Source of the DNA: Pseudoalteromonas sp.
GTDB lineage: Bacteria > Pseudomonadota > Gammaproteobacteria > Enterobacterales > Alteromonadaceae
Reading direction: 5' to 3'
DNA length: 64,000 bases
Assembly (NCBI RefSeq): GCF_041629635.1
Contig: NZ_JBFKMX010000001.1
Location: forward strand, 7,863 to 71,862
The position numbers and the translations under genes are program-made. How positions within the stretch are numbered: position 1 is the first letter of the stretch; the number at the start of each line of letters is the position of its first letter. The notes below the pieces were generated by a model, which saw only the letters and a list, made by a program, of their open reading frames with translations, made no database searches and had not been told where the DNA came from. Positions 1-20,537 of this stretch are shown piece by piece.

Positions 1-894
1 TTGCTATCGTTTAATTTTGGTATTTTCGGGGTGTTATTGAGTGGTTGCCTAGTTACCACTATGGTAACCATCAGTTTAGTTTTAGTTCATAGACGTTTAT
101 TGTTTTGTAAAGAGCCTTTTCTTTCACGTAAGCACTTTCGTTACGGTTCGCACATCGCCCTTTCTGCACTCTTTTTGTATGGGTTGGGCGGTGCTGAAAA
201 CTGGTTTATAGCAAGTGCATTAGGTCCTTCTCAACTGGCATTTTATTTTATTGCAACACAGTTCTCTTTAGCGTTATCTCTGGCATTTGAACCGTTTCGT
301 TTATGGTGGTTTCCAGTGCGTTTCAAACGCTTTGAAAGCAATCCGGAATTAGCGGCGAAAGGGGCTGTTATGGGATGTTTTATCATCACTTTGTTGGCAC
401 TTTTCATGATGATATTTGCTCCCTTTATGATGACTTGGCTACTGCCAAGTCATTACCATGGCAGTGCTGACTATATTGCAATACTATGCCTAATTTTAGT
501 GATTAAGACATATGCAGAACTGTTAAACCTTGGCTGTTATTTAGATAAATATACTGGTTATGTGCCACTTATCAACGGGGTATGTGCTGTTATCGCGCTT
601 GTCAGCATAGCAAGAACCACAACATTTTATGGAATTAATGGAGTGTTTTTTGGATTACTACTAGCACACACATTGCGGTTTTTAGCCTTTTATCTGATAA
701 GTCAACGCATTGCTCGATTAAGGTATCAATTCACCACGCTTGCTGTGGTTTTTAGTTTGCTTGTATTGCATTTAGTGCTTGCAGAATCGATTTGGCTAAA
801 TATTGGCTTGCTAACACTTTCAGTGCTTTTCGCAATTAAATTTCTACATACGCACTCGCTCGACAAAGTGAGAGATAGATATGAATACTCTTAA
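1..894 (+). CDS. Wzx-type polysaccharide flippase (SypK-like), 5' truncated by window edge
   Basis: Multi-TM hydrophobic ORF open from base 1; FYFIATQFSLALSLAFEPFRLWWFP segment typical of MOP/Wzx flippases; first gene of an EPS cluster. Confidence 0.8.
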   Translation: MLSFNFGIFGVLLSGCLVTTMVTISLVLVHRRLLFCKEPFLSRKHFRYGSHIALSALFLYGLGGAENWFIASALGPSQLAFYFIATQFSLALSLAFEPFRLWWFPVRFKRFESNPELAAKGAVMGCFIITLLALFMMIFAPFMMTWLLPSHYHGSADYIAILCLILVIKTYAELLNLGCYLDKYTGYVPLINGVCAVIALVSIARTTTFYGINGVFFGLLLAHTLRFLAFYLISQRIARLRYQFTTLAVVFSLLVLHLVLAESIWLNIGLLTLSVLFAIKFLHTHSLDKVRDRYEYS

Positions 895-2284
895 CTTAAG
901 TCATGCTGAATTGATGTCCCCGTACAAGCTCATAATTCTCGGTTTATTAGTGAGTTTTACTGTTATCGCACTTTATAAAATTGCTGGACCCGCAGCACCA
1001 TTTGCATTTTTGATGTTGCCGTTTGCGCTTTTTTTTACTGTGCGCTTTAGCGTAATTTTTGTCATTTTATTTATTCTTTTTAGTTATTTTCGTATTCACG
1101 AAGCTTTTCCGGTGCTAATGCCATTTAAAATACCCAAATTACTTGCGTTGGCATCCCTATTTGGCATTGTGTGGCATCTGATATTAAGCAAAAAACTGAC
1201 ACCTTTCTGGCATCCGGCTCATAGTGTATTTATGCTGTTTTTTATTTGGTTAACCCTATGCGTAATGATGGCAACAAATCGTGCAATGGCGATTGATTAT
1301 TGGATTTCAACCCTTAGCAAAGTAATGATAATGGTATTTGTGATTAGTTGGTGGGTGAATACGCCTCGTGCCTTTAGTATCGCCCGCATTGGGATTATGG
1401 CTAGCGGTTTACTAATCGCTTTTGTTGCTGTTTCAAACAAACTCAATGGTATTGGTTTAGTAGAAGGGACACGCGTCACCATCTCTCGGCATTTAAAATC
1501 TCAGATTGGTGATCCGAATGATCTTTCACTGGTATTGCTTTTTCCCGTTTCGTTTCTCTGCGCCGAACTATTTAATAACGAAGGTAAATTTTTGAACCGG
1601 CTTCTTGTATTTATGGTTCTCTGTTTAGTAGTGTACGGCATTATCGCGACACAGAGCAGAGGCGGATTGTTAGGTGTAATGGCGATTGTTGCTTATTTTC
1701 TTGGACGAACTCTTAAAAACCCAATTGCGTTGATTTCTGTGTTGCTTACAGGGTTTAGCATGTTATTAATCGCTGCGGGTATCAGTGATAGACAAAGTGG
1801 TGGCGCTGCTGAAAGCGGTATAGATGAATCTGCTATGGGGCGAATATATGCTTGGCAAGCGGCAATCAATATGGCGATCTCAAATCCACTAACTGGTGTT
1901 GGCGTTAATAACTTCTATGTAAATTATTTCTTTTATAGCCCGCATTGGGATGGCAAAAATCACGCAGTACACAGTACATGGTTTCAAGTGCTAGGTGAAA
2001 CAGGCTTTGTTGGTATTTTGCTTTTTGCAACGCTAATCGCGACGATTTATCGTAGCTTAAAACGCAGCGGCTCACTGGTGAAGTATTACTCAGAACCAAA
2101 TTTGTTGGTCAATGTGCAAGCTTTAAAAGGCGGATTAATAGGCTTTGTCGTATCGGGTACTTTTTTAACGCAAGCTTTTACATGGCCAATATACATTGTG
2201 TTATCACTTAGTATCGCGTTGGAACAGATGCTGCAAACATCTAGTAAATCGCACGCGGAGGTGAGCCATGATTGCAGACGTTAA
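881..2284 (+). CDS. O-antigen ligase/Wzy-like polysaccharide polymerase (SypL-like)
   Basis: Many TM helices; GDPNDL, TQSRGG, PLTGVG and AVHSTWFQVLGETG motifs of the Wzy_C family. Confidence 0.85.
   Translation: MNTLNLSHAELMSPYKLIILGLLVSFTVIALYKIAGPAAPFAFLMLPFALFFTVRFSVIFVILFILFSYFRIHEAFPVLMPFKIPKLLALASLFGIVWHLILSKKLTPFWHPAHSVFMLFFIWLTLCVMMATNRAMAIDYWISTLSKVMIMVFVISWWVNTPRAFSIARIGIMASGLLIAFVAVSNKLNGIGLVEGTRVTISRHLKSQIGDPNDLSLVLLFPVSFLCAELFNNEGKFLNRLLVFMVLCLVVYGIIATQSRGGLLGVMAIVAYFLGRTLKNPIALISVLLTGFSMLLIAAGISDRQSGGAAESGIDESAMGRIYAWQAAINMAISNPLTGVGVNNFYVNYFFYSPHWDGKNHAVHSTWFQVLGETGFVGILLFATLIATIYRSLKRSGSLVKYYSEPNLLVNVQALKGGLIGFVVSGTFLTQAFTWPIYIVLSLSIALEQMLQTSSKSHAEVSHDCRR
2018..2030. promoter_or_regulatory. 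Near-perfect LuxO-type enhancer box inside the polymerase gene
   Basis: TTGCT-TTT-TGCAA, 1 mismatch to TTGCA-W3-TGCAA, about 190 bp upstream of the sigma54-like element at 2220; lies in coding sequence so may be chance. Confidence 0.35.
2220..2235 (+). promoter_or_regulatory. Putative internal sigma54 promoter for the acetyltransferase-GT genes
   Basis: TGGAAC-AGATG-CTGCA, GG-N10-GC spacing (GG 2221-2222, GC 2233-2234), 33 bp before the ATG at 2268. Confidence 0.45.
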
Positions 2285-2969
2285 AAATTGGGTAAAAAGC
2301 AGTGATACAGGTTTGGGTAAATTTTGTCGTAGTAGTTTTTATGCGCTTAAACATATCGAAATGCCTGTGATCCCGTTGTTTTACAAAATACTTTTTTTAC
2401 TACATGGTTGTATGAAAACGATGTGGCACAAGACACTCCAGTTTTTTTACTATACGCCAATGTTTAAAAGCCAAGTGGGTGGTTCTAAAAAACGATTGAC
2501 TCTCCAGTGCGGTATACCTCAAGTAATTGGAACATTGGCAATACGCGTTGGTAATGATGTAAGAATGTCAGGTGTTACGACCTTTTGCGGGCGCTATAAT
2601 CAACATCATGTTGCACAATTGATTATCGGAAATAATGTTGATATTGGTTGGCAAAATGCGTTTTCAGTAGGATCGCGGATTGAATTACATGACGATGTTC
2701 GACTTGCAGGCAGAGTTTTTTTAGCAGGGTTTCCTGGTCATCCACTTAATAGTGCTGAGCGAGCAAAAGGCAAGCCTGACTTGCCGGAGCAAGTAGGCGA
2801 TATCATTATCAAACAAGGAGCATGGATAGGAACTGGTGCCACCGTTCTAGCAGGTGTTACGATTGGAAAAGGTGCTATTGTGGCTGCGAATGCAGTTGTG
2901 ACTAAAGATGTTCCTGACTTTACTCTCGTTGCAGGTAATCCTGCGAGAATAATTAAGCAAGTAAGTTAG
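2268..2969 (+). CDS. Left-handed beta-helix O-acetyltransferase (SypM-like)
   Basis: Hexapeptide repeats, AWIGTGATVLAGVTIGKGAIVAANAVVTKDVP and VAGNPARIIK; GGAGG RBS. Confidence 0.9.
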   Translation: MIADVKNWVKSSDTGLGKFCRSSFYALKHIEMPVIPLFYKILFLLHGCMKTMWHKTLQFFYYTPMFKSQVGGSKKRLTLQCGIPQVIGTLAIRVGNDVRMSGVTTFCGRYNQHHVAQLIIGNNVDIGWQNAFSVGSRIELHDDVRLAGRVFLAGFPGHPLNSAERAKGKPDLPEQVGDIIIKQGAWIGTGATVLAGVTIGKGAIVAANAVVTKDVPDFTLVAGNPARIIKQVS

Positions 2970-2978
2970 GGAGGCAAC

Positions 2979-4088
2979 ATGAAATTTGTTGTATTTGCAG
3001 AAGACTGGGGACGCCATCCTAGTAGCACCCAACACATATTTAAAGTGATTGCTGAACAATACCAAGTTACGTGGTTTAATTCTGTCGGTATGCGTAAACC
3101 TAAGCTGAATTTAACCGATTTAGGACGCGTATATAGCAAGCTCAAGCTGATGCTGTTGAATAAAAAACAATTATCAGCAGAAAAGTTACTTATTAATACA
3201 CGTAACCCATTGATTTTACCTTGGCATGATCGCAAATGGGTGGCTAGATTTAATAAGCGTCAAATTGCAAAACAGCTAGATTTATCTTCACAAGAACCGA
3301 TTATTTACTGGATTAGTGTGCCAACTGCTATCAATATGATTCAACTGCGCCCGCAAGATAGCCTGATTTACTACTGCGGGGATGATTTTTCAAACCTAGC
3401 AGGAGTTGATCCTCAGCTGATCCAGGAAAGTGAAGCCCGCTTAATACATCAAGCGCATAACATTTTTGTCGTCAGTAAAGTGCTGCTCGACAAAATGCCG
3501 AAGCACAAAACGCAATTGCTAGAACATGGTGTGGATTACACATTGTTTAGCCAAATGAAAAAAACCAATAGCCAACTGAATTCATTAAACAATATTATTG
3601 GATTTTATGGCTCGTTGTCAGAGTGGTTAGATCTTGAATTATTAATCAAATTAGCTAAGACACGCCCACAATATCACTTATTGTTAATAGGAAAAGCTGA
3701 TATTGATATCAGTGCGCTTGTGGCATTACCAAACGTAACTTATCTTGCGCAAGTTGCGCATCACCAACTTGCTAGTTTTTCTCAACATTGGCAAGTTTCA
3801 CTTTTACCGTTTATTGATAACGGCCAAATTAGGGCATGTAACCCTCTTAAATTGAAAGAATACTTGGCAGCTGGTAAGCCCATTGTATCGAGTTGTTTCC
3901 CTGCTGTTGAACGTTACAAAGATTCAGTACTTATTGCACGGGATCATATGGGATTTATTGCAAGGGTAGATTACGCTATGGAGATTTCTAAAAATTCTTC
4001 TCTAGACTGGCGAACATATTCGCAACAATTAGTCAAAAAGCACAGTTGGCAACAAAAGGCAGCTTTTGTCATAGAACAACTAGTTTAA
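2979..4088 (+). CDS. Glycosyltransferase, GT-B fold/TuaH-like (SypN-like)
   Basis: EDWGRHPSSTQH N-terminus, IGFYGSL and NPLKLKEYLAAGKPIV motifs; GGAGG RBS. Confidence 0.9.
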   Translation: MKFVVFAEDWGRHPSSTQHIFKVIAEQYQVTWFNSVGMRKPKLNLTDLGRVYSKLKLMLLNKKQLSAEKLLINTRNPLILPWHDRKWVARFNKRQIAKQLDLSSQEPIIYWISVPTAINMIQLRPQDSLIYYCGDDFSNLAGVDPQLIQESEARLIHQAHNIFVVSKVLLDKMPKHKTQLLEHGVDYTLFSQMKKTNSQLNSLNNIIGFYGSLSEWLDLELLIKLAKTRPQYHLLLIGKADIDISALVALPNVTYLAQVAHHQLASFSQHWQVSLLPFIDNGQIRACNPLKLKEYLAAGKPIVSSCFPAVERYKDSVLIARDHMGFIARVDYAMEISKNSSLDWRTYSQQLVKKHSWQQKAAFVIEQLV

Positions 4089-4199: not shown

Positions 4200-4215
4200 T
4201 GGCGCTAATATTGCG
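4200..4215 (+). promoter_or_regulatory. sigma54 -24/-12 promoter
   Basis: TGGCGC-TAATA-TTGCG, exact GG-N10-GC spacing, intergenic. Confidence 0.65.
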
Positions 4216-4283
4216 ACATAACCTACAGAGTAGTGAAAAAATAGTGTTTTTCACATTTTGAAAACAAAATTCGTTAAATTGCG

Positions 4284-4296
4284 TTGCATTTTGCAA
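4284..4296. promoter_or_regulatory. LuxO-type enhancer box
   Basis: Perfect TTGCA-TTT-TGCAA palindrome, intergenic, just before the RBS of the gene at 4310. Confidence 0.7.
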
Positions 4297-4309: not shown

Positions 4310-5797
4310 ATGGTTTTTACGATAGCGCAAATTAAAAAGCTTATTTACCTCGCTTTGTATACTATTTACGAGCGCTGGCAGCTAATTATATTGCCAATTA
4401 TTATTGTGCCCATTGCTGTTATCGGGATTGCACTTAACAGTCCAAAGCAATTCACCAACCACGCGACCATTTTGATAGAAGAATCTGCTCTTCTGAACCC
4501 ATTTTTAGATGAATTAGAATTCTCCTTTGAGTTGTCTTCACGGATGGATGCATTACGTACCTTAGTACTGAGCCGAAAAAATTTAACAGGAGTTGTGAAA
4601 GAAGTTGGGCTGGTAAAAAACCTTGATAATCAGCTTGAAGTTGAAAAAATGCAAGAAAAACTGGCCAATGCAATCTCTATTTCTCTGGTGGGAGATGAGC
4701 TAGTGCGAATTCACTTCAAGTGGGAAAAACGTGAAGAAATGAAACCTGTGCTTGAAGCAATGGTAGAAAAGTTTATTGAACGTTTACTCGCACCAACAAA
4801 AACATCTCTCGATACCTCAGAAATCTTTTTGAAAAATCAGCTGGAAGAAATGCGCGTCCAGCTAGAGGTAGCCGAAGATAAGCTGGCAAAATTCAAACGC
4901 GATAATCGTGCTGCACTGCCCGAATTATTGAACATCAATCAAGACACTTTGGTTCGCTTAGAACAAAAAAAACAGCAAAAATTAGTGGATTTAAGTGGTG
5001 CAAAAGCACGATTAGCTACATTGAAAAAACAACTTGCCAAAGCGAATCCCGTAAAAGGCCGTTTAGTGGACAGTATCATGCGAATTGAAGCGGATATTGC
5101 GCTATTACTTACCCGATATACTGACCAACACAGTAAAGTCCAAGCAAAACTGCGTGAATTAGAAACTTTAAAAATACGCAAGCAAGAAATAGAAACCCAG
5201 TCGCAACCATTTGAAGAAGCGGACCTTGATTCATTGTGGCAAATTGCAAATAGTTTACCGTTGGGTGCCAACGCCAAAGACAGTGCGCTGTTAGTATCAC
5301 AACTTATTACTTTAGAAGAAGCTGAAAATCAAGTTGCACAACTGAAAGAAGAACTTGAGATGTTGTCTGAGCAGCTTTCTGAGATTTCCACTCATCTATC
5401 AAGTTCCAGTGAAATTGATAAAACATTGCGTCAATTACAACGAGATTATCAAGTAAAACAAACACTGTATTCCGAAATGCTCGAACGATATGAGATGTCG
5501 AAAGTAACGGGTCAATTGGTTCGGTACGAAGGGCCTGACAAAGTAAAAATAATTGAGCGCGCTTACAGCCCAACTACACCAATCAATCAGTCACTTGTTA
5601 TTAATATATTTTTGGGGGTAGTACTCGGGCTTTTTAGCGCTGCGGCACTGACATTTATCGCCATGATCACCGACTTTAGATTACGTGATAAAAGCATGAT
5701 TGAAGCAATATCAGGAAAACGCGTCTTAACAACATTACCTATTGTGAAAGATGTATCTCAGTACATCACATCGACTCATCGGAGGCACTATGAATAA
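4310..5797 (+). CDS. Polysaccharide chain-length determinant, GumC/Wzz-Wzc type (SypO-like)
   Basis: N- and C-terminal TM helices flanking a long periplasmic coiled coil; KIIERAYSPTTP before the last TM. Confidence 0.9.
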   Translation: MVFTIAQIKKLIYLALYTIYERWQLIILPIIIVPIAVIGIALNSPKQFTNHATILIEESALLNPFLDELEFSFELSSRMDALRTLVLSRKNLTGVVKEVGLVKNLDNQLEVEKMQEKLANAISISLVGDELVRIHFKWEKREEMKPVLEAMVEKFIERLLAPTKTSLDTSEIFLKNQLEEMRVQLEVAEDKLAKFKRDNRAALPELLNINQDTLVRLEQKKQQKLVDLSGAKARLATLKKQLAKANPVKGRLVDSIMRIEADIALLLTRYTDQHSKVQAKLRELETLKIRKQEIETQSQPFEEADLDSLWQIANSLPLGANAKDSALLVSQLITLEEAENQVAQLKEELEMLSEQLSEISTHLSSSSEIDKTLRQLQRDYQVKQTLYSEMLERYEMSKVTGQLVRYEGPDKVKIIERAYSPTTPINQSLVINIFLGVVLGLFSAAALTFIAMITDFRLRDKSMIEAISGKRVLTTLPIVKDVSQYITSTHRRHYE

Positions 5798-6866
5798 CAT
5801 CATTCAGTTGATACAACACCCGTACATTGGTGGACTTGAAAAAATGGCATTTGGCTTATGTTGCAGTGAATTAAAAGATTCAAATATGTTCTTAGTTGCC
5901 TTAGAAGGGACAAAAAAAGATGCCATCGCAGATTGGAACGAACTTGCACAGCTTGATAACTTTTACTGTTTGAATAAGGCGCAGGGGATGGACTGGCAAA
6001 CGGTTAAAAATCTAGTGGAGATGATTGATAATTATCGGATTAAAGTAATCCACAGTCATCATATAGGCCCGATGTTGTATGCAAGTCTTGTAAAAAGAAT
6101 GCGCCCTGAAGTACAGCATATCCATACCCTGCATGATGCTTGGTATTTGACTGATTTTAAATATCGTATGTTCACCAAACTGATCGATAAATTTTCACCG
6201 ATCACGATTGTGGCTGACGCCGAGGCAGTCGCTGATGTTGCGAAATCCAAAGCTAATGTGGTGTCTGATTATATTGTGCATAATGGTATTGATACAGATT
6301 ATTTCAAACCGTCATCACGTTATTCGGCGCGTTTAAAGCTAGGTTTACCAAGCGATAACATCATTATAGGTTGTGCTGCGCGCATTGAAAAAGGCAAAGG
6401 TCATAAAGCCATGCTGCGAGCTTTGAATGCTTTGCCTGCAACAGTCCATATGGCATTTGCTGGAGATGGCAGTCTGTTAGCAGATCTTAAAGAGTATGCT
6501 TTATACATTGGCGTTTCAGATAGGGTTCATTGGTTAGGGTGTGTTCATGATATGCCAATTTTTTATTCTGCAATTGATGTGTTTTGTTTGTATTCAGAGC
6601 GTGAGGGGTTGCCGTTATCTATTTTAGAGGCAATGGCATGTAATCGGCCAATTGTCGCCAGTGATGTTGGTGGTATTTCTGAGGTGGTAAACGACAAATT
6701 GGGTTTTGTGCTTCCAATAGAAAATGAGCATCTTTTAGCTCCAAGTTTATTAGCAGCACTAAAGTTGAACAATGGTATGGATATCCGCCAATATGCACTT
6801 GCACAAGCGACGTTGAAAGTAATGGCTCAGGATTACAACAAAATATACCAAACTATCTTAGTGTGA
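5790..6866 (+). CDS. GT4 glycosyltransferase (SypP-like)
   Basis: GGLEKM, HNGIDTDYF, ARIEKGKGH and EGLPLSILEAMAC motifs; start moved to ATG 5790 behind GGAGG at 5781. Confidence 0.9.
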   Translation: MNNIIQLIQHPYIGGLEKMAFGLCCSELKDSNMFLVALEGTKKDAIADWNELAQLDNFYCLNKAQGMDWQTVKNLVEMIDNYRIKVIHSHHIGPMLYASLVKRMRPEVQHIHTLHDAWYLTDFKYRMFTKLIDKFSPITIVADAEAVADVAKSKANVVSDYIVHNGIDTDYFKPSSRYSARLKLGLPSDNIIIGCAARIEKGKGHKAMLRALNALPATVHMAFAGDGSLLADLKEYALYIGVSDRVHWLGCVHDMPIFYSAIDVFCLYSEREGLPLSILEAMACNRPIVASDVGGISEVVNDKLGFVLPIENEHLLAPSLLAALKLNNGMDIRQYALAQATLKVMAQDYNKIYQTILV

Positions 6867-6876
6867 GGATGTGATT

Positions 6877-8672: not shown

Positions 8673-8716
8673 TTGCAAAATGCAACAAGTAAATAAACTT
8701 CTGTTGCATTTTGCTA
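8673..8716. promoter_or_regulatory. Tandem LuxO-type enhancer boxes
   Basis: Perfect TTGCA-AAA-TGCAA (8673-8685) and TTGCA-TTT-TGCTA (8704-8716), centres 31 bp apart (about 3 helical turns). Confidence 0.75.
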
Positions 8717-8767: not shown

Positions 8768-8783
8768 TGGCATTGTATTTGGT
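8768..8783 (+). promoter_or_regulatory. Putative sigma54 promoter with variant -12
   Basis: TGGCAT-TGTAT-TTGGT: consensus -24, correct spacing, GG instead of GC at -12; downstream of the tandem boxes and 35 bp before ATG 8818. Confidence 0.55.
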
Positions 8784-8817: not shown

Positions 8818-9144
8818 ATGAACAACCAACTACCAACAAAAGAACAAGACAACACACTAACAATTGAACTTCCTCACGATTTTTCAGGCTTGAATGTCGA
8901 CAAATATCGCGAACATTTTGAGTGTTTCGCGGCAACGCAACACGATGCTATTGTACTTGATTTTAGTAACACGGAGTTTATTGATTCATCGGGTATTGGC
9001 GCCATGGTTTTTTTGTTTAAACGAATTGAAAAGCGTGGCATCTCAATGATGGTAATGGACGTTACGGGTCAACCTGAAAAGTTAATGAAGCTGTTACGTG
9101 TCGACTCTACTATTCCATTTATTACTTCTGCTCCACTCATTTAA
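8818..9144 (+). CDS. STAS-domain anti-sigma-factor antagonist (SypA-like)
   Basis: IVLDFSNTEFIDSSGIGAMV with the phosphorylatable Ser; GAGGA RBS. Confidence 0.9.
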   Translation: MNNQLPTKEQDNTLTIELPHDFSGLNVDKYREHFECFAATQHDAIVLDFSNTEFIDSSGIGAMVFLFKRIEKRGISMMVMDVTGQPEKLMKLLRVDSTIPFITSAPLI

Positions 9145-9157
9145 TAGAGGCCGTACT

Positions 9158-10000: not shown

Positions 10001-10005
10001 TGATT

Positions 10006-12093: not shown

Positions 12094-12800
12094 AAATTAT
12101 TCCCAAACAGTATCAAGAGTTAGAAGTTATTTTTGATGCAATTAATCGAGAAAATGCACGCTGTATTGCGTTTGCTTCTCCATATGGACACGCTGGGGCT
12201 ACCTCTCTCGCTGTAAGTGTGGCAAGGCGCTTAAGTGGTCGTAATGAACGAGTGTTAGTAATCGATTTAAATACTTTCCATCCAATGTCTGACAAGGACT
12301 TGATAAGCATGCCAAACTCTTTGGCAAAATGGTCTTTTGTTGATATTAGTTGCCAATTGAATGCGCAAGTGATTGATAATTTTTACTTCTTAAGTATTAC
12401 TCAGCTACAAGATTTGACCTTAGTACGTGAAAAGGATGTATTCAACACAGCCATTTTGATGCTAAAACAAGAGTTTGATTATATTTTGTTTGATATGTCA
12501 CCGATTTGTAAAAAGCATCATGCGAATTTTCCTCTGCATTTAATAATTTCGGTTACAGATTTACTGTTATTAGATATTTCGCTTGGTAAAACGACACAAG
12601 ACACGTTAGATGCTGTAATTAATGAACTAGAGCAAGTAAATTGTAAACGTTATGAAATCGTAGTAAGTCAGATCTTTATGCCTCCCTTAGGTGATTGTTT
12701 AATTAAGAGTATCAATAGGCGATGTTATAAACTACCAAAACTGAGGCAATTTTTAACTAATTTAGTTAACAAACAGCATTGGTTATTCACTGGAGTATAA
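12090..12800 (+). CDS. BY-kinase/ParA-like P-loop protein (SypD-like), Walker A lacks Lys
   Basis: ASPYGHAGATSLA, VLVIDLN, FDYILFDMSP. Confidence 0.7.
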   Translation: MKIIPKQYQELEVIFDAINRENARCIAFASPYGHAGATSLAVSVARRLSGRNERVLVIDLNTFHPMSDKDLISMPNSLAKWSFVDISCQLNAQVIDNFYFLSITQLQDLTLVREKDVFNTAILMLKQEFDYILFDMSPICKKHHANFPLHLIISVTDLLLLDISLGKTTQDTLDAVINELEQVNCKRYEIVVSQIFMPPLGDCLIKSINRRCYKLPKLRQFLTNLVNKQHWLFTGV

Positions 12801-12802
12801 CT

Positions 12803-14272
12803 ATGAATGTATTGTTTTATCGTCGTTTCAGTTTAATCTGGTCAACTTTACATTCGGTGCGAGAAACGCTATTGACGCTGTTGGCTAAACTCGATGTTGA
12901 AAGTGAAGAGATTGATAACACAGGCTTAGTAGTGACGGAATATCTGACGAATTTAATACGTCATAGTGAAGGAGAAGATCAGGCTGTGACGTTAGTGATT
13001 GGTCGTACTTTAAATGCTATCAGGATTGAACTTGTTGACCCAACAGACTACTTTCATCCTACATTGTCTCGGTCGCATGCTACAGATATTGTTGATGGTG
13101 AGCTGCGTGAGGGAGGAATGGGACTTGCCTTGATAGCTCATTACTTTCCTGACTTTAATTATGTTTCTGAAGAAGGAAAAAATCATTTTAGTTTTGCGTT
13201 GTCACTTAAAAAAATTAAAAATCGAATTGTAATAATTGATGATGAAAATGCTAGTTTACAGCTGATCAAAGCGTTTTTAGAAAATGAATATGAATGTCAT
13301 GCATTCACAGATGAGCATGATGCTTATCAGTATTTAATGTCACACAATGTTGACCTTTTACTTATTGATATGAACTTAAATGCAATGTTAGCTGATGAAT
13401 TTATATCTAACATTAAACAATTAGAGCATCTAAATAATATAGGTATAGTCGTGATTTCGGGTGATAGCAGCCGAGAAACTATGCTCAAAGCACATTTATG
13501 CGGAGTAGATGATTATTTGATAAAACCTGTTAAAAAACAGCAACTTGAATTAGTGTGTGAACGGGTTAAAAGTCGCTGTGTTTCACGTTCGGTTAGTAAT
13601 GCTTGCACGGGTAATTCGGGTAAAAATACGGTGATAAATTGCGGCCAATTTAAAGTTATCCCGTATGGGAATGTGGTAATAGGGAGCGGTGGTGATGTGT
13701 TAATTCATCACACTACGGATAACAAGAACATTGTTTTCTTTGGTGATGTGATGGGACATGGAGCAACGGCAAATCGTGTTGCATTACAACTCAAGGGGTT
13801 TATAAAAGGGTTATTACAGTCCTCTTACCATTCGCTTGACGTATTTGTTAACTTTTTTGCGACGAGCATAGTTCAACAAGACTTTATGCAGCAAAGCCTC
13901 GTTACCTTTATTGCATTGGAAATATCGGGGGATCAGATCCGACTTGTTAATGCAGGACACCCCCTTCCGATCGTAATATCCAAAATACAAGGAGTGCGAA
14001 GTGTGTGCACATCCCAGCCTTTAGTAGGGCTTGTTTCAAACTATGTATATCAAAGTGAATTGATCCCCTTCTTGACAGGAGAATCATTGCTCTTAGCGAC
14101 AGATGGTTTCTTTGAAAACCATGAAAATTATGATGAACTAACACAATTAGTGAATGCGGTATACAGTACTTCAAGTCTTGAAAACTTATCTGACACAAAT
14201 GACTTTTGGTACAAAAGTTTACCTAGATTATCAAAAGAAATTGACGATTCGTCTCTCCTGGTACTTAATTAG
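12803..14272 (+). CDS. RsbW-like Ser kinase / receiver / PP2C phosphatase protein (SypE-like)
   Basis: TEYLTNLIRH and EGGMGL (HATPase); IIDD..LLLID..IKP (REC); GGD, GDVMGHG, TDG, DD (PP2C); start at ATG 12803 behind GGAG. Confidence 0.85.
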   Translation: MNVLFYRRFSLIWSTLHSVRETLLTLLAKLDVESEEIDNTGLVVTEYLTNLIRHSEGEDQAVTLVIGRTLNAIRIELVDPTDYFHPTLSRSHATDIVDGELREGGMGLALIAHYFPDFNYVSEEGKNHFSFALSLKKIKNRIVIIDDENASLQLIKAFLENEYECHAFTDEHDAYQYLMSHNVDLLLIDMNLNAMLADEFISNIKQLEHLNNIGIVVISGDSSRETMLKAHLCGVDDYLIKPVKKQQLELVCERVKSRCVSRSVSNACTGNSGKNTVINCGQFKVIPYGNVVIGSGGDVLIHHTTDNKNIVFFGDVMGHGATANRVALQLKGFIKGLLQSSYHSLDVFVNFFATSIVQQDFMQQSLVTFIALEISGDQIRLVNAGHPLPIVISKIQGVRSVCTSQPLVGLVSNYVYQSELIPFLTGESLLLATDGFFENHENYDELTQLVNAVYSTSSLENLSDTNDFWYKSLPRLSKEIDDSSLLVLN

Positions 14273-14307: not shown

Positions 14308-15729
14308 ATGCCAAATAAGATTTTAATTGTTGAAGATACAGAATCACTTGCGCTTTTGTACCAGTCTTACCTGATCCCAACAGGCATGCACTCGGATATT
14401 GCGTTTACAGGGCAAGAAGCGCTTAATTATTTGGAAAAGAATAAACCCGATTTGATCATGCTGGATGTGATGCTACCGGACATGAGTGGCATGGATATTC
14501 TAGCACAGCTTTCCGTTAATGACCGTCCCAAAGTGGTGGTATTAACAGCTCATGCTAGTAAAGAAATGGCTGTTGATGCGATTCATTATGGTGCCGCAGA
14601 CTTTATTGAAAAACCCGTTGATGCAGAGCGCTTTCGTATTACTGTTAACAATGCTTTGAAACTCAATTCACTAAGTAAAACGGTAGAAAAATATCAATCT
14701 CGTTATGAAAATGGTCGCTTTTGTGAACTAATTGGCACTTCGGCACCGATGCAAACGGTATATCAAATCATTAGCAATTCAGCAAAAAGTAAAGCCACTG
14801 TGTTTATTACTGGTGAAAGTGGAACAGGTAAAGAGCTTTGTGCACGCGCAATTCACCAATGTAGTGACCGCAGTAAACACCCCTTTATAGCGATTAATTG
14901 TGCTGCAATCCCAAAAGATCTGATTGAAAGTGAAATATTTGGTCATGTAAAAGGCGCATTTACAGGAGCGACTAACAACCGTGAAGGTGCGGCAGGGATG
15001 GCTGATGGTGGTACGCTATTTCTTGATGAACTGTGTGAAATGGATTTAAACCTACAAAGTAAACTATTGCGCTTTATACAAACGGGTTGTTTCCAAAAAG
15101 TAGGTAGCGAACAACTGCAACAAGTGAATGTACGTTTTGTATGTGCGACTAACCGCGATCCATGGCAGGAGGTACAAGCTGGGCGCTTTAGAGAAGATTT
15201 ATATTATCGCTTATATGTTATACCTGTGCAGTTGCCTCCGTTGCGCCAACGGGGTCGGGATGTCATTCAAATTGCAGAAGCGTTATTTGCACGTATTGCA
15301 AAAGAAGAAGGGCAAGCGTTTGATGGATTAAGTGATGATGCAAAACAACACCTAATGTCTTATAGTTGGCCTGGAAATGTGCGTCAACTGGAAAATATGA
15401 TTCGTAATACGGTGGTGTTGAATAATACCGCATGGATAGAAAAACAGATGTTTCCCCCTTTTCCACAAAGTCACGTGTCGCAAGAACCCTTTATGGATGA
15501 GAGCATGAGTGTGTCTGAGCAACTATCTACGCCTAGTTTTGAAACCAATAATTTACTTAGAAGCTCAGATATAGAGCCTTTATGGCTAGTTGAAAAACGC
15601 TACATTGAAAAGGCAATAGCAGCGTGTAACGACAATGTACCAAAAGCAGCAGCATTATTAGATATCAGTCCATCTACAATCTACCGCAAAATGAAAACAT
15701 GGGAGCAAATGTCTGCACAGCTCTATTAG
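14308..15729 (+). CDS. luxO: sigma54-dependent response regulator, LuxO-like
   Basis: REC, GESGTGKE, GAFTGA, HTH; NCAAIPKDLIESE, DELCEMDLNLQSKLLRFIQTG, ATNRDPWQEVQAGRFREDLYYRLYVIP and ISPSTIYRK closely follow Vibrio LuxO as recalled; AGGAGG RBS. Confidence 0.8.
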   Translation: MPNKILIVEDTESLALLYQSYLIPTGMHSDIAFTGQEALNYLEKNKPDLIMLDVMLPDMSGMDILAQLSVNDRPKVVVLTAHASKEMAVDAIHYGAADFIEKPVDAERFRITVNNALKLNSLSKTVEKYQSRYENGRFCELIGTSAPMQTVYQIISNSAKSKATVFITGESGTGKELCARAIHQCSDRSKHPFIAINCAAIPKDLIESEIFGHVKGAFTGATNNREGAAGMADGGTLFLDELCEMDLNLQSKLLRFIQTGCFQKVGSEQLQQVNVRFVCATNRDPWQEVQAGRFREDLYYRLYVIPVQLPPLRQRGRDVIQIAEALFARIAKEEGQAFDGLSDDAKQHLMSYSWPGNVRQLENMIRNTVVLNNTAWIEKQMFPPFPQSHVSQEPFMDESMSVSEQLSTPSFETNNLLRSSDIEPLWLVEKRYIEKAIAACNDNVPKAAALLDISPSTIYRKMKTWEQMSAQLY

Positions 15730-16730
15730 TTTAAATAAAGTTTAATTAACTGAATATATTGTGATTTTCCTGCATAGAATTGATGAAGTTGGCTGGTTGC
15801 ATTTTTGACCAGATAATTACGCTCTTGCTGGCTCATTAAAAGCGCCTCTCTTAATTTACTCACCAATGCTTGGTGCGATTGGTCGTCCGTTAATAGTCCA
15901 GTGTGGTTGTTTATGATAACAGAATCGATAGCACCTACTGCATTTGCGATACATAACACTTTATTGTCAATAGCTTCAAGCAAGACCATAGGTAACCCTT
16001 CCTCTCTAGAACAAATTACTAATATATCAACGTGCTGCCATAATTTTTGAGTCGATTTATGACCATGAAAAAGCGTATTGTTCGAAGCTTTTTTTTGTAA
16101 CTCAGCGATCATAGGTCCATCGCCATAAAGGTGAAATTTAATGTTCTCTTGATGTTGAAAATGAGTGGCCAATTTAATAAAACGTTCGGGTGCTTTTTCA
16201 TATGCTAAACGTCCAACAAAAGCGATATTCAGTTGTTTTTCGGGCTCTTTTGGATGTGGGTTTTTAGGCAAGATAAAATTAGCAATAAACTGGCCATTTT
16301 TAACCTTACTTTTGAGTTGATTTGCCACGACTAAGTTTTTTGAAAAGCCGCTGGTTATTTGGTCGAGCCAATTATAGAGCCTTATTCTGCCCGAACCTTT
16401 TTCGCCAGCATGATAGGTGGAAATACAAGTGTGACCAGTTATTTTACATGTAAGTCTACCAATAATACCTGCTTTGTAACCATGGGTATGTAATACATAG
16501 TTGTCACTATGTTTGAGGAAATGAAAAAGATCTAATGCACTACCGCCTAAACATTGATAAGGGCAGTTAAGCTCTGTCAATAAATCATAGAGCTGATGAT
16601 TGAGATGATCTTGATAAAAAAGAACACTTGTAGGCACATGTTTCGATTGCATCAATTTAACTAATTCAATAATGTGCGATTCAATGCCGCCAAATAGGCT
16701 AGAATCTAGAAAGAGTACAAGATTTCGCAT
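15726..16730 (-). CDS. GT4 glycosyltransferase (SypH-like)
   Basis: FGGIESH, HTHGYKAG, FVGRLAYEKAP, SREEGLPMVLLEA; start moved to ATG 16730 behind AGGAG. Confidence 0.9.
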   Translation of the reverse strand: MRNLVLFLDSSLFGGIESHIIELVKLMQSKHVPTSVLFYQDHLNHQLYDLLTELNCPYQCLGGSALDLFHFLKHSDNYVLHTHGYKAGIIGRLTCKITGHTCISTYHAGEKGSGRIRLYNWLDQITSGFSKNLVVANQLKSKVKNGQFIANFILPKNPHPKEPEKQLNIAFVGRLAYEKAPERFIKLATHFQHQENIKFHLYGDGPMIAELQKKASNNTLFHGHKSTQKLWQHVDILVICSREEGLPMVLLEAIDNKVLCIANAVGAIDSVIINNHTGLLTDDQSHQALVSKLREALLMSQQERNYLVKNATSQLHQFYAGKSQYIQLIKLYLN

Positions 16731-16755
16731 ATTTATCTCCTCTAAAAGGAACCCT

Positions 16756-17073
16756 ATGTTTAACCAAACAACCATAAAACAACTGGAAGCCGATGTTGGC
16801 CAAGAAGTACTGATCAAACTTTTTGCCGTTTTTGCTCAAGAAGCGACAAAACTAACCGAGCAACTTATGGCTTGCACATCTCTTGATGAAGAATGTGTAC
16901 GTTTAAGCCATAGCCTTAAAAGCTGCGCTCGTTCCTATGGTGCGGATCAGCTAAGTGCTCTTGCTGAAACCCTTGAAAATCTTGCAAAAAATAACGATGC
17001 AAGCTTCTTTAATGAACGTGCGCTTTTAGGTGGCATACTGGATGCGACCATGTCTGCAATGCCAATGCTTTAA
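16756..17073 (+). CDS. luxU: Stand-alone Hpt phosphotransfer protein, LuxU-like
   Basis: SHSLKSCARSYGADQL Hpt motif; N-terminus FNQTTIKQLEADVG resembles Vibrio LuxU; AAGGA RBS before ATG 16756. Confidence 0.75.
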   Translation: MFNQTTIKQLEADVGQEVLIKLFAVFAQEATKLTEQLMACTSLDEECVRLSHSLKSCARSYGADQLSALAETLENLAKNNDASFFNERALLGGILDATMSAMPML

Positions 17074-17960
17074 TGCACTTTTGCATTTAGGCTTAAAGAG
17101 TGCTCATTAGTGTTGGGTAACCACTGTTCAATAATATGTTTAAGCTGAGATTTATTATGCTTTCCGATTGATTGTTCTTTTTCTATGGCGCGTAAATCCA
17201 TGGCCTCAAATGCATCTGGAGTGAGACATACATCAAAAAACTTGTAGCCTAAGATATGCATAGCCTGGTCAAGTTGCTCTGTGGCAGCAAGTTGGTCAAC
17301 AGGGCTATGTTCAGGCGTTAAGTTTTCAATAAAGATGCGACAACCAGTGGTATTACATAATGCTTTTTGAATATCCCATAACATTAAGGGCGGCATTACA
17401 CTGGTTAATAAACTACCAGGACCTAATAAGATTAAATCAGCACAGTTTATTGCCTCAATGGCTTGCTGGTTAGCACTGACCTGTTTGGATAAACGCATGT
17501 TATTAGGAAAATGACTAAGTGTGTCAATATTGCATTCACCAAAAACCTCCTCTCCTGTAGAGGTTGTAGCAACTAAATCAACAGGCGTATTTGTCATTGG
17601 CAAAATAGTATGTTCAACCCCTAACATGCTAGAGAAAATTTTAACTGCATCGTTTGCGTTGTGTGTAATTTGGCACAGTGCGCACAGTAGAATATTGCCA
17701 AAACTGTGACCCTTCAAATCATTGTCTAATTCAAAGCGTTGTTCGGACAAGATTGATAACATCTGGTCTTGGCAGGCTAACGCACTAACGCAACGGCGAA
17801 TATCACCTAAAGCAATTTGACTTGGGTCTTGACGCAAACGTCCGGTGCTGCCGCCGTTGTCAGTTGTAGTTACGATTGCTGTCAGTGCACAAGGTATGTT
17901 TTTTAAAGCGCTTAACACTTGCGATAGACCATGTCCCCCGCCAATACACACAATATTCAT
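17070..17960 (-). CDS. yvcK: YvcK/GlmR (CofD-like) UDP-binding protein
   Basis: IGGGHGL, TTTDNGGSTGRLR, GDIRRC, GHSFGNI, LGPGSLLTS; start moved to ATG 17960. Confidence 0.9.
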   Translation of the reverse strand: MNIVCIGGGHGLSQVLSALKNIPCALTAIVTTTDNGGSTGRLRQDPSQIALGDIRRCVSALACQDQMLSILSEQRFELDNDLKGHSFGNILLCALCQITHNANDAVKIFSSMLGVEHTILPMTNTPVDLVATTSTGEEVFGECNIDTLSHFPNNMRLSKQVSANQQAIEAINCADLILLGPGSLLTSVMPPLMLWDIQKALCNTTGCRIFIENLTPEHSPVDQLAATEQLDQAMHILGYKFFDVCLTPDAFEAMDLRAIEKEQSIGKHNKSQLKHIIEQWLPNTNEHSLSLNAKVH

Positions 17961-18010: not shown

Positions 18011-18051
18011 AGATATAAAACGCGAAAACTAGGGAAAACATTAATTTTTAT

Positions 18052-18064
18052 TTGCATTTTGCAA
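18052..18064. promoter_or_regulatory. LuxO-type enhancer box between yvcK and the hybrid kinase
   Basis: Perfect TTGCA-TTT-TGCAA; reverse complement shares the 16-mer GCATTGCAAAATGCAA with 8670-8685. Confidence 0.75.
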
Positions 18065-18130
18065 TGCAGCTTGCGGGGTCATTCGCTAAACTTAATTTTA
18101 ACCTTCGACCAAAACTCACAAAGAGGTGTC

Positions 18131-20140
18131 ATGGGAAAACTTAGTGCCAATGCTACATTGCAATTACTAGAAGATCTTATTAGCAGTAAAAATGCATTTG
18201 AATTACTGATTAAATTGCAAATAGGCCTTCAGCCTATTGTCAGATTTTCAGAGATCTTGATTTTGACCCAAGATCATTCGCAACTGTGTGCTGTGGCAAG
18301 CACTTACGAACCCTTATCGGGGGCGTGTTTATTTAATAAAGAAGAGCTTTTTGAAAGCGGTTTTGAAGAACAGATATTAGTGGTCAATAACACTGAGTTA
18401 CCAGCAGATTGGCAATTACCAAACACAGGTAATAAAGCGGCTTTAATTCCCATTAATTTTGCTGGGCGGAAAGGTATATATATATTATTTTTGACGGAAG
18501 AGATGGTTGATGATTCACAGGTAAAAAGTAATCTAATGGCTAGTCTTATCGTTTTTCGTCTAGCTTTTTATCAATTAGATCAACAACATCAAACTTCCCA
18601 AATGCTACTCGACCGAACTTTTGCGCTAACGCAGAGCCAGCAACGGTTTCAAGCTTATGCCGAACTTGCTTCTGATTGGTTTTGGGAAACGGATGAAAGC
18701 ATGTGCTTTACCTATCTTTCTTTTACTGAACAAAGTAAACCCAGTAACTTTGAGAACTTTTTATACAAAAGTCCGTTAAATATTCGCAGTGACAGCGAAA
18801 GTACTCAATGTAAAAAGTGGGAACACTTTTTACATCTTGTGCGTAAACATTTAGACATTATTGATTTTGAGTTTGAGGCAATAAACAACCAAGGTCACAC
18901 GGTTTGGATATCAATCAGTGGTAAAGCAAAATTCAATGTGGACAATAGCTTTGCGGGGTATTTGGGCATCGCTAAAGACATCAGTTTCTCTAAGCAGCGT
19001 GAATCAGATTTAAAAATGGCTAAAGAGAAAGCTGAAAGTGCTAACGCTGCAAAATCACATTTTCTTGCTGTTATGTCTCATGAAATTCGTACGCCGATGA
19101 ATGCAATTCTGGGTATATTAGAGTTACTTGAAGACACAGACCCGAATGATAAACAACGCGAGTTAATTGAATTTATGCGTGGCAGTGCCCAGTTGTTGCA
19201 GGGGGTTATCAGTGATACATTGGACTTTGCAAAAATTGAATCAGGCACCCTTGCATTAGAAAGTAGTAATATTAATTTTCATAAGCTAATCAAGAATTTA
19301 GTTCAGCAATTCGAAACCCAAGCGATAAAAAAAGGCATCCATTTTAATGCTATTGTGGGTAATGGTGTACCCGAGCAGATTAATACCGATGGTGTTCGTT
19401 TGTCTCAGGTCTTACTTAATTTGTTGGGAAATGCATTCAAATTTACCTTAACGGGAGAGGTTTGCCTTGCGGTTAATCGCAGTGATACCGAATTGTTGAT
19501 ATCGGTAAAGGACAGCGGCATAGGTATCGAGCAAAGCCAAGTAGATAGTTTGTTTGAACCGTTTTCACAGTTGCATGATAAACAAATTGGTCGACAGCAA
19601 GGAGTTGGTCTTGGTTTAAGTATCACTAAACGCTTGCTTGAATTGATGAATGGGAAAATAGAATGCCACAGTGAAATTGGTGTGGGCACTGAATTTTCTG
19701 TTGCTATTCCATTGCAGTTGGAAGTAACCGATGAAAACCCAGAAGGGTTGGAATCTAAAAATATCAGTACACCGAGTTATCATATTTTGGTCGCTGAAGA
19801 TAACCCAGCAAACCAATTTATCATTAAAGCTATTTTGGAAAAACGCAACCATACAGTGTCACTTGCGGATAATGGTGAGCAAGCTGTTGCCGCAGTTAAA
19901 AAATCGCAATTTGATTTGGTGCTAATGGATATGGTGATGCCTGTAATGGATGGTGTAGTAGCGGCACGCACGATAAGAACAGAACTTGGCAGAATGGCAC
20001 CGCCTATCATCGCGTTGACTGCAAATGCTGGGTTAGCTGACAAAACCAAATGTTTAAATGCGGGCATGTTGGATGTACTGACAAAACCATTAAACAGCGC
20101 TTTGTTAGACGAAAAAATAAGGACCCTTGTCGGGACGTAG
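18131..20140 (+). CDS. Soluble hybrid sensor histidine kinase (GAF-like, PAS, HisKA, HATPase, REC)
   Basis: ELASDWFWETD PAS, MSHEIRTPMN H-box, N/G boxes, AEDNPANQ..LMDMVMP receiver; no TM helix and no Hpt; start moved to ATG 18131 behind GAGG. Confidence 0.9.
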   Translation: MGKLSANATLQLLEDLISSKNAFELLIKLQIGLQPIVRFSEILILTQDHSQLCAVASTYEPLSGACLFNKEELFESGFEEQILVVNNTELPADWQLPNTGNKAALIPINFAGRKGIYILFLTEEMVDDSQVKSNLMASLIVFRLAFYQLDQQHQTSQMLLDRTFALTQSQQRFQAYAELASDWFWETDESMCFTYLSFTEQSKPSNFENFLYKSPLNIRSDSESTQCKKWEHFLHLVRKHLDIIDFEFEAINNQGHTVWISISGKAKFNVDNSFAGYLGIAKDISFSKQRESDLKMAKEKAESANAAKSHFLAVMSHEIRTPMNAILGILELLEDTDPNDKQRELIEFMRGSAQLLQGVISDTLDFAKIESGTLALESSNINFHKLIKNLVQQFETQAIKKGIHFNAIVGNGVPEQINTDGVRLSQVLLNLLGNAFKFTLTGEVCLAVNRSDTELLISVKDSGIGIEQSQVDSLFEPFSQLHDKQIGRQQGVGLGLSITKRLLELMNGKIECHSEIGVGTEFSVAIPLQLEVTDENPEGLESKNISTPSYHILVAEDNPANQFIIKAILEKRNHTVSLADNGEQAVAAVKKSQFDLVLMDMVMPVMDGVVAARTIRTELGRMAPPIIALTANAGLADKTKCLNAGMLDVLTKPLNSALLDEKIRTLVGT

Positions 20141-20238
20141 CATGCACATTAATTAGCTCTGTTAGTGATTGCGTTTAACCTAGCAGAGTAGATCTAAAGC
20201 AAAATCATTTGAACACCCATACCTTAATTTTCATCTAG

Positions 20239-20412
20239 TTATGGTTCAGCATATTCTTCCTTAAGTTGTTGTAAAATGCGTTCTTGCTGTTTAAAGCTAA
20301 AGATCACTTTACGGCGGTAATCGATAGAACGATAGAACAGTTCTAAATCTATAAAGGGTCTCATAGCTTTTAATTTCTGGTCGATTGAAAACTGCTGTTG
20401 AGCGTTACGCAT
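20239..20412 (-). CDS. Unannotated 57-aa protein MRNAQQQFSIDQKLKAMRPFIDLELFYRSIDYRRKVIFSFKQQERILQQLKEEYAEP
   Basis: Translated by hand; ATG 20412, GGAG RBS 7 nt upstream, sigma54 promoter and enhancer boxes upstream; below the 60-aa ORF-track cutoff. Confidence 0.7.
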   Translation of the reverse strand: MRNAQQQFSIDQKLKAMRPFIDLELFYRSIDYRRKVIFSFKQQERILQQLKEEYAEP

Positions 20413-20446
20413 ATCATATCTCCAAATTTGCTCTTCAATTCTCTAA

Positions 20447-20462
20447 AGCAAAATATGACCCA
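20447..20462 (-). promoter_or_regulatory. sigma54 -24/-12 promoter of the 57-aa ORF
   Basis: Minus strand TGGGTC-ATATT-TTGCT, GG-N10-GC. Confidence 0.65.
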
Positions 20463-20512
20463 AATTTAACCTGTTGAATTTCTTTTACTAATATTTTCGT
20501 GAAGGGCTGTAA

Positions 20513-20537
20513 ATTGATTTTGCAATGCAAAATGCAA
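20513..20537. promoter_or_regulatory. Abutting pair of LuxO-type boxes
   Basis: ATTGA-TTT-TGCAA overlapping ATGCA-AAA-TGCAA by 1 nt; centre of the better box about 70 bp upstream of the -24 element. Confidence 0.65.

Follow-up and report, generated by a model that had tools for sequence, protein, structure and literature searches.

The 64-kb stretch of Pseudoalteromonas sp. DNA analysed here, referred to as the window (RefSeq assembly GCF_041629635.1, contig NZ_JBFKMX010000001.1; its first letter is base 7863 of the 78-kb contig), opens with an exopolysaccharide (EPS) locus of the syp/scv type, which covers positions 1-20140 according to the open reading frame (ORF) listing and Pfam and NCBIfam scans. 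In this locus of the P. piratica group of Pseudoalteromonas, EPS synthesis is probably driven directly by a sigma54 activator belonging to the sister lineage of LuxO, acting together with a stand-alone histidine phosphotransfer protein (Hpt) in the position of luxU and with yvcK. The genes are arranged in the units sypK-L-M-N, sypO-P-(Q+R fused) and sypA-B-C-D-E, the last being followed by the sigma54 activator gene, and a SypF-type kinase with its own Hpt was not found on the contig when the window and the 7.8 kb upstream of it were scanned. A first-pass annotation of the same DNA had already listed the gene set K, L, M, N, O, P, Q+R, A, B, C, D, E and the lack of SypF, and both are borne out, the former by domains as well as by order. 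Overlooked at that stage were a SypH-like GT1 glycosyltransferase (GT) gene on the minus strand and the extension of the locus beyond the upstream edge of the window.

Phylogenetic position of the activator

Textbook accounts of quorum sensing in Vibrio centre on LuxO, LuxU and the Qrr small RNAs (sRNAs); the biofilm paralogue of LuxO is SypG. The window activator is 54-56% identical to Vibrionaceae LuxO versus 46-48% to Vibrio SypG, and its nearest named relative is the activator of P. piratica (89% identity). The same preference is seen in the AAA+ domain (65-66% versus 56-59%) and in the helix-turn-helix (HTH) region (53-63% versus 49%), where the motif NIPKAAxLL...SPSTIYRK is common to the activator and LuxO, whereas Vibrio SypG carries NVLNAAVLLEL...SPSTVYRKKQ. 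LuxO and SypG themselves share about 47-48% identity (PMC10162802).

A maximum-likelihood tree of 62 sequences was computed under LG+C20 PMSF, with four proteins of the NtrC class, all from the same genome, serving as outgroups. In it, the Pseudoalteromonas clade, joined by Aestuariibacter, and Vibrionaceae LuxO are sister groups (ultrafast bootstrap 95, SH-aLRT 96), the former not being nested inside the latter. The union of Pseudoalteromonas and LuxO is recovered again (SH-aLRT 93) in a tree of 125 sequences to which named gamma- and alphaproteobacterial loci had been added. Vibrio SypG is placed in a separate clade together with activators that other families have in syp loci of the SypF type, and joining the Pseudoalteromonas clade to Vibrio SypG is rejected by the approximately unbiased (AU) test (p=0.007). 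Hence, the activator groups neither with SypG nor with generic bacterial enhancer-binding proteins (bEBPs), in agreement with the first-pass annotation, which had taken it for LuxO-like rather than SypG.

When the NCBIfam LuxO model was scanned over 401 genomes of the order, and 40 contexts were mapped with the window proteins, scores above 800 bits were obtained in all 24 matching genomes of one family, which was taken as Vibrionaceae on the basis of these scores and of the clustering with named Vibrionaceae sequences in the trees. Nineteen of these genomes have a second copy scoring 543-617 bits, the range of Vibrio SypG (Vibrionaceae LuxO, 825-870 bits), and the second copies belong to syp loci with the order sypA-D, sypE and/or a SypF kinase or solo Hpt, sypG, sypH and then sypL-R. 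Many other families possess a single copy at 630-684 bits, as does the window genome, which holds only this one bEBP of the LuxO/SypG class and also encodes RpoN. For the window activator, the next family after the LuxO model is NtrC at 382 bits.

LuxO-type boxes and sigma54 elements at the syp operons

The known LuxO enhancer is TTGCAWWWTGCAA (PMC10162802). Perfect copies occur three times in the window against 0.09 expected and seven times in the whole 4.03-Mb assembly, four of the seven being situated in intergenic regions or at operon starts of the locus. One of the four is upstream of the window, where the GT2 and GT1 genes diverge (contig C1:6111), and the others are at sypO (window position 4284), at sypA (8673) and between yvcK and the kinase gene (18052). 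A perfect SypG enhancer (TTCTCANNNTGMDW) is not present in the window. Patterns judged unsuitable were the SypG enhancer at one mismatch, which occurs at chance level in the window, and the sigma54 consensus at two mismatches, which is too permissive to be used alone.

Conservation of these elements was assessed in the 250 nt upstream of the respective gene, with motif statistics resting on shuffles; a box at ≤1 mismatch turned up in under 1% of the shuffled controls. Upstream of sypA, at least one box at ≤1 mismatch is found in 37 of 38 species and at least two boxes at ≤2 mismatches in all 38, and a TGGYAY-N5-YTG element in 33. In the sypA regions that were inspected, the boxes are 31-33 bp apart and are followed after about 55-65 bp by the sigma54-like element, which lies about 35 nt before the ATG. 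A box at ≤1 mismatch is likewise present upstream of sypO in 38 of 38 species, most loci showing by inspection a TTGGC-N8-TGC promoter and then boxes in the 5' leader; for yvcK, the figure is 21 of 31 species. The kinase gene has a box upstream but no sigma54 element before it. The control loci behaved consistently: all six Vibrionaceae luxO loci have a LuxO box beside luxO and no SypG enhancer, and all six Vibrio syp loci have several SypG enhancers and no LuxO box.

Qrr sRNAs were not found in the genome (best match 19.8 bits versus a threshold of 50 with the Rfam model, in an assembly that is 90.5% complete), and an Rfam scan of the window at gathering thresholds returned nothing. As no Qrr sRNA would intervene, the LuxO-type relay is predicted to act on the EPS genes directly. 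This wiring, already suggested in the first-pass annotation, is supported at the level of sequence by the boxes at operon starts (four of seven), by their conservation in 38 species and, further, by the lack of Qrr and of a second bEBP of the class. The 57-aa ORF beyond the kinase gene is probably an extra member of the regulon; its product, which belongs to no Pfam family, has counterparts of 82-88% amino acid identity in three close species only (L130, L132 and L133).

The three remaining perfect boxes are located outside the locus (contigs C158:4859, C5:53202 and C22:25764). One of them precedes by 157 bp a TGGCAC-N5-CTGCT element and a 208-aa coiled-coil ORF beside a chemoreceptor gene, another is found upstream of a small lipoprotein-like ORF and the third within a pilin-like ORF.

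Hpt, yvcK and hybrid kinase

In six of six Vibrionaceae genomes, the block around the high-scoring copy consists of a 676-aa ORF, luxO, the Hpt gene (luxU), a convergent yvcK and a 334-aa ORF, in agreement with the luxO-luxU-yvcK block that the first-pass annotation had named as conserved in Vibrio. The two flanking ORFs are provisionally taken, from their length, to be uvrB and moaA. Convergence of the Hpt gene with yvcK, with overlapping stop codons, characterises all six of these loci and about 31 of the 39 from Pseudoalteromonas, and was not found in the other sampled families, where yvcK is far from the activator gene. In the window, a GT gene separates the Hpt gene from that of the activator. 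Extended synteny with the Vibrio flanks was not observed, homologues of the two flanking ORFs being on other contigs of the genome.

A LuxO-clade activator (at least 61% identity) is encoded in 41 of 121 Pseudoalteromonas species genomes, about a third. Besides the window, the locus was taken from 39 further Pseudoalteromonas species, of which about 31 show an identical layout (sypLMN, sypOP(QR), sypABCDE-activator, GT on the opposite strand, Hpt convergent with yvcK, kinase). In six loci, those of the P. phenolica group, yvcK is 30-36 kb away, and in one the activator stands alone. The gene yvcK is present in 41 of the 121 genomes as well, 40 having both. Consequently, yvcK is an accessory gene travelling with the locus in Pseudoalteromonas and not part of a 'resident' block, and the term resident, which the first-pass annotation had used for the phosphorelay, is doubtful since activator and yvcK are gained or lost together. 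Across many families of the order, YvcK identity stays level at about 40-46%, Vibrionaceae not being singled out.

As had been noted before, the hybrid kinase is devoid of an Hpt of its own: the protein ends with its receiver, and it also has no transmembrane segment.

Several observations on locus structure may be added. In the section 14308-17960, the genes are interleaved in antiparallel fashion (activator +, GT -, Hpt +, yvcK -), both convergent pairs overlapping by 4 nt at their stops, a layout kept in about 31 species, and the start codons of GT and Hpt are only 25 bp apart with ribosome-binding sites (RBS) back-to-back. Due to this arrangement, the transcript of each strand must read antisense through a gene of the other, resembling an excludon. 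In Pseudoalteromonas sp. H71 (L054/L167), the locus is decayed, with fragments of sypL, GT and yvcK around intact activator, Hpt and kinase genes and the other syp genes gone. In Vibrionaceae, five of six sampled syp loci (L011, L013, L015, L017 and L019) have a stand-alone Hpt ORF of 123-135 aa directly upstream of sypG and not SypF, and these Hpts cluster with the SypF Hpt of L021.

Proposed relay

The soluble hybrid kinase, from its domains, would sense a cytoplasmic cue. Its receiver may then hand the phosphate to the stand-alone Hpt, a step that would be needed because the kinase has no Hpt itself. From the Hpt, the phosphate is predicted to go to the receiver in the LuxO-like activator and, by analogy with the Hpt of V. 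fischeri SypF, probably also to that in SypE. The activator would bind the TTGCA-W3-TGCAA boxes observed in the locus and drive the sigma54 promoters of GT1-sypKLMN and probably also of the divergent GT2-receiver pair, of sypOP(QR), of sypABCDE plus its own gene, of yvcK-GT and of the 57-aa ORF. SypE and SypA might add a post-transcriptional partner-switch checkpoint, and the availability of UDP-sugar precursors may be adjusted by YvcK.

Evidence against the assignment and alternative readings

Several findings count against such a LuxO-type relay. The activator scores 666.7 bits, which is under the NF041946 LuxO equivalog cut-off of 800. In its linker (FCELIG, window 14701-14740), Glu replaces the Gly of LuxO (YQGFIG), as confirmed by alignment to the LuxO crystal-structure sequence 5EP0. 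Outside the grouping of Pseudoalteromonas with LuxO, the backbone of the bEBP family tree is an unresolved polytomy, and a union of the Pseudoalteromonas clade with the wider clade containing SypG is rejected only marginally by the AU test (p=0.046). The Hpt has LuxU (NF041948) as best NCBIfam match at 48.5 bits versus a cut-off of 140, and in a tree of 44 Hpt domains with only 113 columns, in which Vibrionaceae LuxU is split from all others (97/92), it is not joined to LuxU and stays in the unresolved remainder, outside the clade holding the Vibrio syp Hpts. At the DNA level, the -12 element of sypA is non-canonical (TTGG/TTGT), the sypO boxes are downstream of the promoter just before the RBS, and no more than 40-50 bp separate the box from the -24 elements in the divergent GT1/GT2 region. 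Moreover, the SypF-type syp locus L023 of a related genus, which includes yvcK, has the same boxes with an activator outside the LuxO clade, indicating that the boxes reflect the binding specificity of the family and not LuxO identity.

Of what had been claimed before, the affinity of the activator to LuxO is upheld by the trees, and the LuxO hallmarks (equivalog score, linker Gly and qrr partner) are missing; for the stand-alone Hpt, a LuxU-like nature is retained by position and best match and not by score or tree. On kinship with LuxU, the position of the Hpt gene is more informative than its tree. By score and linker Glu, the predicted activator is not a strict LuxO. In other Pseudoalteromonas activators, the linker position is occupied by Asp or Gln. 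In V. cholerae LuxO, a G145E change at the linker Gly is activating (PMC10162802), and the Glu of the window protein is, on alignment, a natural equivalent of it. Because of this residue, LuxO-style autoinhibition probably does not apply to the activator.

Regarding the origin of the proposed LuxO-type relay, we tentatively suggest that the Vibrionaceae luxO-luxU-yvcK block goes back to the regulatory end of a locus of the syp type. Pseudoalteromonas would have kept the older wiring from LuxO relay via sigma54 to EPS, with yvcK in the regulon, and Vibrionaceae would later have lost the EPS genes at this place and switched LuxO to the control of Qrr. Polysaccharide genes also adjoin about half of the other bEBP-family lineages in the sample; these lineages and L023 fit an old EPS role, and the Vibrio block is possibly a relic of such a locus. 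With the same mechanism, a chimeric history is conceivable, in which a luxO-luxU-yvcK block of proto-Vibrionaceae entered an existing Pseudoalteromonas syp locus and replaced sypF-sypG. Such a replacement would account for the accessory, co-varying occurrence of activator and yvcK, for the inversion of sypH exactly at the junction of activator and Hpt, and for the other bEBP lineages held by families not closer to Pseudoalteromonas than Vibrionaceae are; the family-wide box type seen in L023 would have permitted the swap without promoter rewiring. In contrast, the stem lengths in the 62-sequence tree place the split from Vibrionaceae LuxO before the Vibrionaceae radiation, yvcK is linked also to the L023 syp locus whose activator is of another lineage, and the frequent adjacency to polysaccharide genes speaks for the old EPS role. 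The patchy, co-varying distribution fits block acquisition with replacement of sypF-sypG equally well as an ancestral relic.

It is improbable that the activator is an ordinary SypG/ScvE equivalent among the catalogued syp/scv variants and that its affinity to LuxO is a tree artefact caused by fast-evolving Vibrio SypG. The gene does occupy the sypG position, the linker is longer than the short one of Vibrio LuxO and nearer to the SypG type, the polytomy and the borderline AU test leave room for such a placement, and in a survey of scv/syp loci in 28 genera including Pseudoalteromonas, the activators are treated as ScvE/SypG orthologues (PMC8941931). Nevertheless, the sister relation to LuxO is obtained in two data sets, the union with Vibrio SypG is rejected, Hpt-yvcK convergence is, among the families sampled, found only here and beside Vibrionaceae luxO, and the enhancers are LuxO-type and not SypG-type.

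Very unlikely is a role of the boxes mainly as operators at which the regulator, phosphorylated or not, represses or blocks transcription, the relay then exerting its main positive effect at another place, such as an sRNA that escaped detection: both sypO boxes between sigma54 promoter and RBS, the kinase-gene box lacking a sigma54 element, the three perfect boxes outside the locus and the autorepression of Vibrio LuxO from the box beside luxO would agree with it, but sypA has classical activator geometry with two boxes about 85 and 115 bp upstream of -24/-12, kept in 38 species, Qrr was not found, and one outside box precedes the sigma54 promoter of a protein gene and not of an sRNA.

Comparison with known systems

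With the syp locus of V. (Aliivibrio) fischeri, the window locus shares homologous structural genes (A-D, H and K-R), SypE together with SypA, an activator gene following sypE, sigma54 operons with upstream enhancers and presumably an Hpt-mediated relay. It differs in the activator, which is of the LuxO sister lineage and not of the SypG lineage, in the enhancers (TTGCAW3TGCAA and not TTCTCAN3TGMDWN), in the substitution of SypF by a stand-alone Hpt plus a soluble hybrid kinase, and in gene order, which is circularly permuted (K-R before A-E) with sypQ+R fused, sypH inverted and yvcK inside. SypF is absent also from many Vibrio loci, among those sampled here as well as in the 28-genera survey (PMC8941931). 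V. fischeri LuxO cannot activate syp promoters, and crosstalk between LuxO and SypG at qrr1 has been published (PMC10162802). With the Vibrionaceae LuxO-LuxU-Qrr system, the locus has in common the closest activator lineage, the stand-alone Hpt convergent with yvcK, the same 13-bp box and, by prediction, input from Hpt-less hybrid kinases. In contrast to that system, the window genome is without qrr and the proposed targets are EPS operons; the activator is below the cut-off with Gly to Glu in a longer linker, and a GT gene stands between activator and Hpt.

Outside autoinducer sensing, LuxU is fed by kinases such as V. cholerae VpsS and V. harveyi H-NOX/HqsK, the output still being LuxO to Qrr. 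By analogy, the window system may resemble these in combining an Hpt-less cytoplasmic hybrid kinase with a LuxU-type Hpt, directed towards biofilm genes, whereas the H-NOX kinase encoded beside the window locus is non-hybrid.

The scv locus of V. parahaemolyticus with ScvE is the same kind of locus as that of the window. The fusion of sypQ and sypR (scvN-O) in Pseudoalteromonas has already been published in the survey, in which, as judged by term searches of its text, activator lineages are not separated and LuxO, an Hpt gene and enhancer types are unmentioned (PMC8941931). A BLAST-named 'luxO' in Pseudoalteromonas is mentioned in PMC6275029, where term searches of the article gave no syp link. 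A full-text literature search yielded no report of a Pseudoalteromonas syp activator in the LuxO sister lineage, of luxU/yvcK synteny, of LuxO-type boxes heading syp operons or of Qrr absence. Hence, these four points appear to be new, whereas the locus and the fusion were known.

Gene content of the locus and its surroundings

The features of the locus are compiled in Table 1. Starts of the GT, Hpt, yvcK and kinase genes were set from RBS and N-terminal motifs. Each of the structural genes is matched in six Vibrio syp loci at 22-56% identity; the flippase is 25-30% identical to its counterparts in Vibrio and other syp loci, and the SypH-like GT1 32-38% to the product of the gene after sypG in Vibrio. 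The pair characteristic of a partner switch is present, SypE combining an RsbW-like kinase, a receiver and a PP2C phosphatase and SypA being the STAS protein. The 7.8 kb upstream of the window add a GT1 gene, the start of the flippase gene and a divergent GT2 gene with a stand-alone receiver.

Table 1. Genes and promoter elements of the syp/scv-type locus, with positions given in the 64-kb window.
Feature	Position	Strand	Evidence and remarks
sypK-like flippase, C-terminal part	1-894	+	Polysacc_synt on full ORF; start upstream of window, contig C1:7377
sypL-like Wzy/O-antigen-ligase family polymerase	881-2284	+	Wzy_C 3e-20; 44-48% identity, Vibrio syp loci
sypM-like hexapeptide acetyltransferase	2268-2969	+	Hexapep; 40-45% identity, Vibrio syp loci
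sypN-like GT1 glycosyltransferase	2979-4088	+	Glyco_trans_1_4; 40-43% identity, Vibrio
sigma54-type promoter of sypO-P-QR	4200-4215	+	TGGCGC-N5-TTGCG
Perfect LuxO-type box TTGCATTTTGCAA, sypO 5' leader	4284-4296	+	Degenerate copy at 4250-4263
sypO-like chain-length regulator	4310-5797	+	GNVR; 32-36% identity, Vibrio
sypP-like GT1/GT4 glycosyltransferase	5751-6866	+	GT1 domain; 37-40% identity, Vibrio
sypQ+sypR fusion, GT2 and polyprenyl-phosphate sugar transferase	6871-8670	+	Glycos_transf_2 and Bac_transf
LuxO-type box pair upstream of sypA	8673-8716	+	8673-8685 perfect; 8704-8716 one mismatch; 31 bp apart
sigma54-like -24/-12 element, sypA operon	8768-8783	+	TGGCAT-N5-TTGGT, non-canonical -12
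sypA-like STAS protein, anti-sigma antagonist type	8818-9144	+	STAS 4e-15
sypB-like OmpA-domain protein	9098-10000	+	OmpA
sypC-like polysaccharide export protein	10000-12093	+	Poly_export and SLBB repeats; 50-51% identity, Vibrio SypC
sypD-like ATPase, tyrosine-kinase-like	12090-12800	+	AAA_31
sypE-like kinase-receiver-PP2C phosphatase	12779-14272	+	HATPase_c_2, Response_reg and SpoIIE
sigma54 activator, 473 aa	14308-15729	+	Receiver (REC), AAA+ (Sigma54_activat) with GAFTGA, Fis-type HTH (HTH_8)
sypH-like GT1 glycosyltransferase, inverted between activator and Hpt	15726-16730	-	Start chosen by RBS
Stand-alone Hpt, 105 aa, luxU position	16756-17073	+	Hpt 3.5e-9; His within SHSLKSCARSYGA
yvcK, CofD-related UDP-GlcNAc-binding family, convergent with Hpt	17070-17960	-	Pfam/NCBIfam; single genome copy
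Perfect LuxO-type box, divergent yvcK/kinase intergenic region	18052-18064	+	Motif search
Soluble hybrid histidine kinase	18131-20140	+	N-terminal sensor region, HisKA, HATPase_c, terminal REC
57-aa ORF	20239-20412	-	TGGGTC-N5-TTGCT at 20462-20447; overlapping LuxO-type boxes 20513-20537

Between sypN and sypO, relatives from the P. piratica group and one uncultured Pseudoalteromonas (L131-L135) carry an insert not present in the window, which encodes a 678-695-aa secreted protein and a small lipoprotein and has its own LuxO box. The 678-aa ORF was considered as a counterpart of the 676-aa flanking ORF of Vibrio and discarded, the secreted protein being unrelated to it.

Directly beyond the syp/lux locus lies an H-NOX module (22071-25517), in which an H-NOX (HNOB) gene (23572-24117) and a gene for a non-hybrid histidine kinase (22071-23579) are both read from the minus strand, the pair facing a receiver-HD_5 regulator of the HD-GYP type (24225-25517). 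The same adjacency is found in Pseudoalteromonas sp. SSM20 (L050) and in an uncultured relative (L051). In V. fischeri, the Hpt of SypF receives input from H-NOX kinases, as does LuxU in V. harveyi. Between the hybrid kinase gene and the H-NOX module, at 20921-21972, there are two transposase fragments (rve_3; HTH_29/HTH_28), which are missing from this place in the close relative L050. Further downstream, genes for an AcrB-family transporter and a membrane-fusion protein (25723-29969) have a G+C content of 0.44-0.45 versus about 0.39 nearby, and 36360-39002 encodes a histidine kinase with an ethylene-receptor-like N-terminus (ETR1_N, 2e-37) followed by PAS domains.

Implications

To our knowledge, the relationship between the LuxO and SypG circuits has been discussed only within Vibrionaceae, and we know of no published explanation for the linkage of yvcK and luxU in Vibrio. 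If correct, descent from a syp locus would also explain why yvcK is found beside luxU in Vibrio, and its conserved position would thereby gain a functional rationale. The locus is, moreover, a natural case of a LuxO-class protein without the autoinhibitory linker glycine. In Pseudoalteromonas, whose members are known to colonise surfaces, the control of biofilm polysaccharide is given a concrete regulatory model, and the origin of LuxO, either as EPS regulator or by later capture, becomes testable in culturable, non-pathogenic marine bacteria. Taken together, the findings suggest that direct control of biofilm polysaccharide genes is within the capacity of LuxO-type relays and was perhaps their original function.

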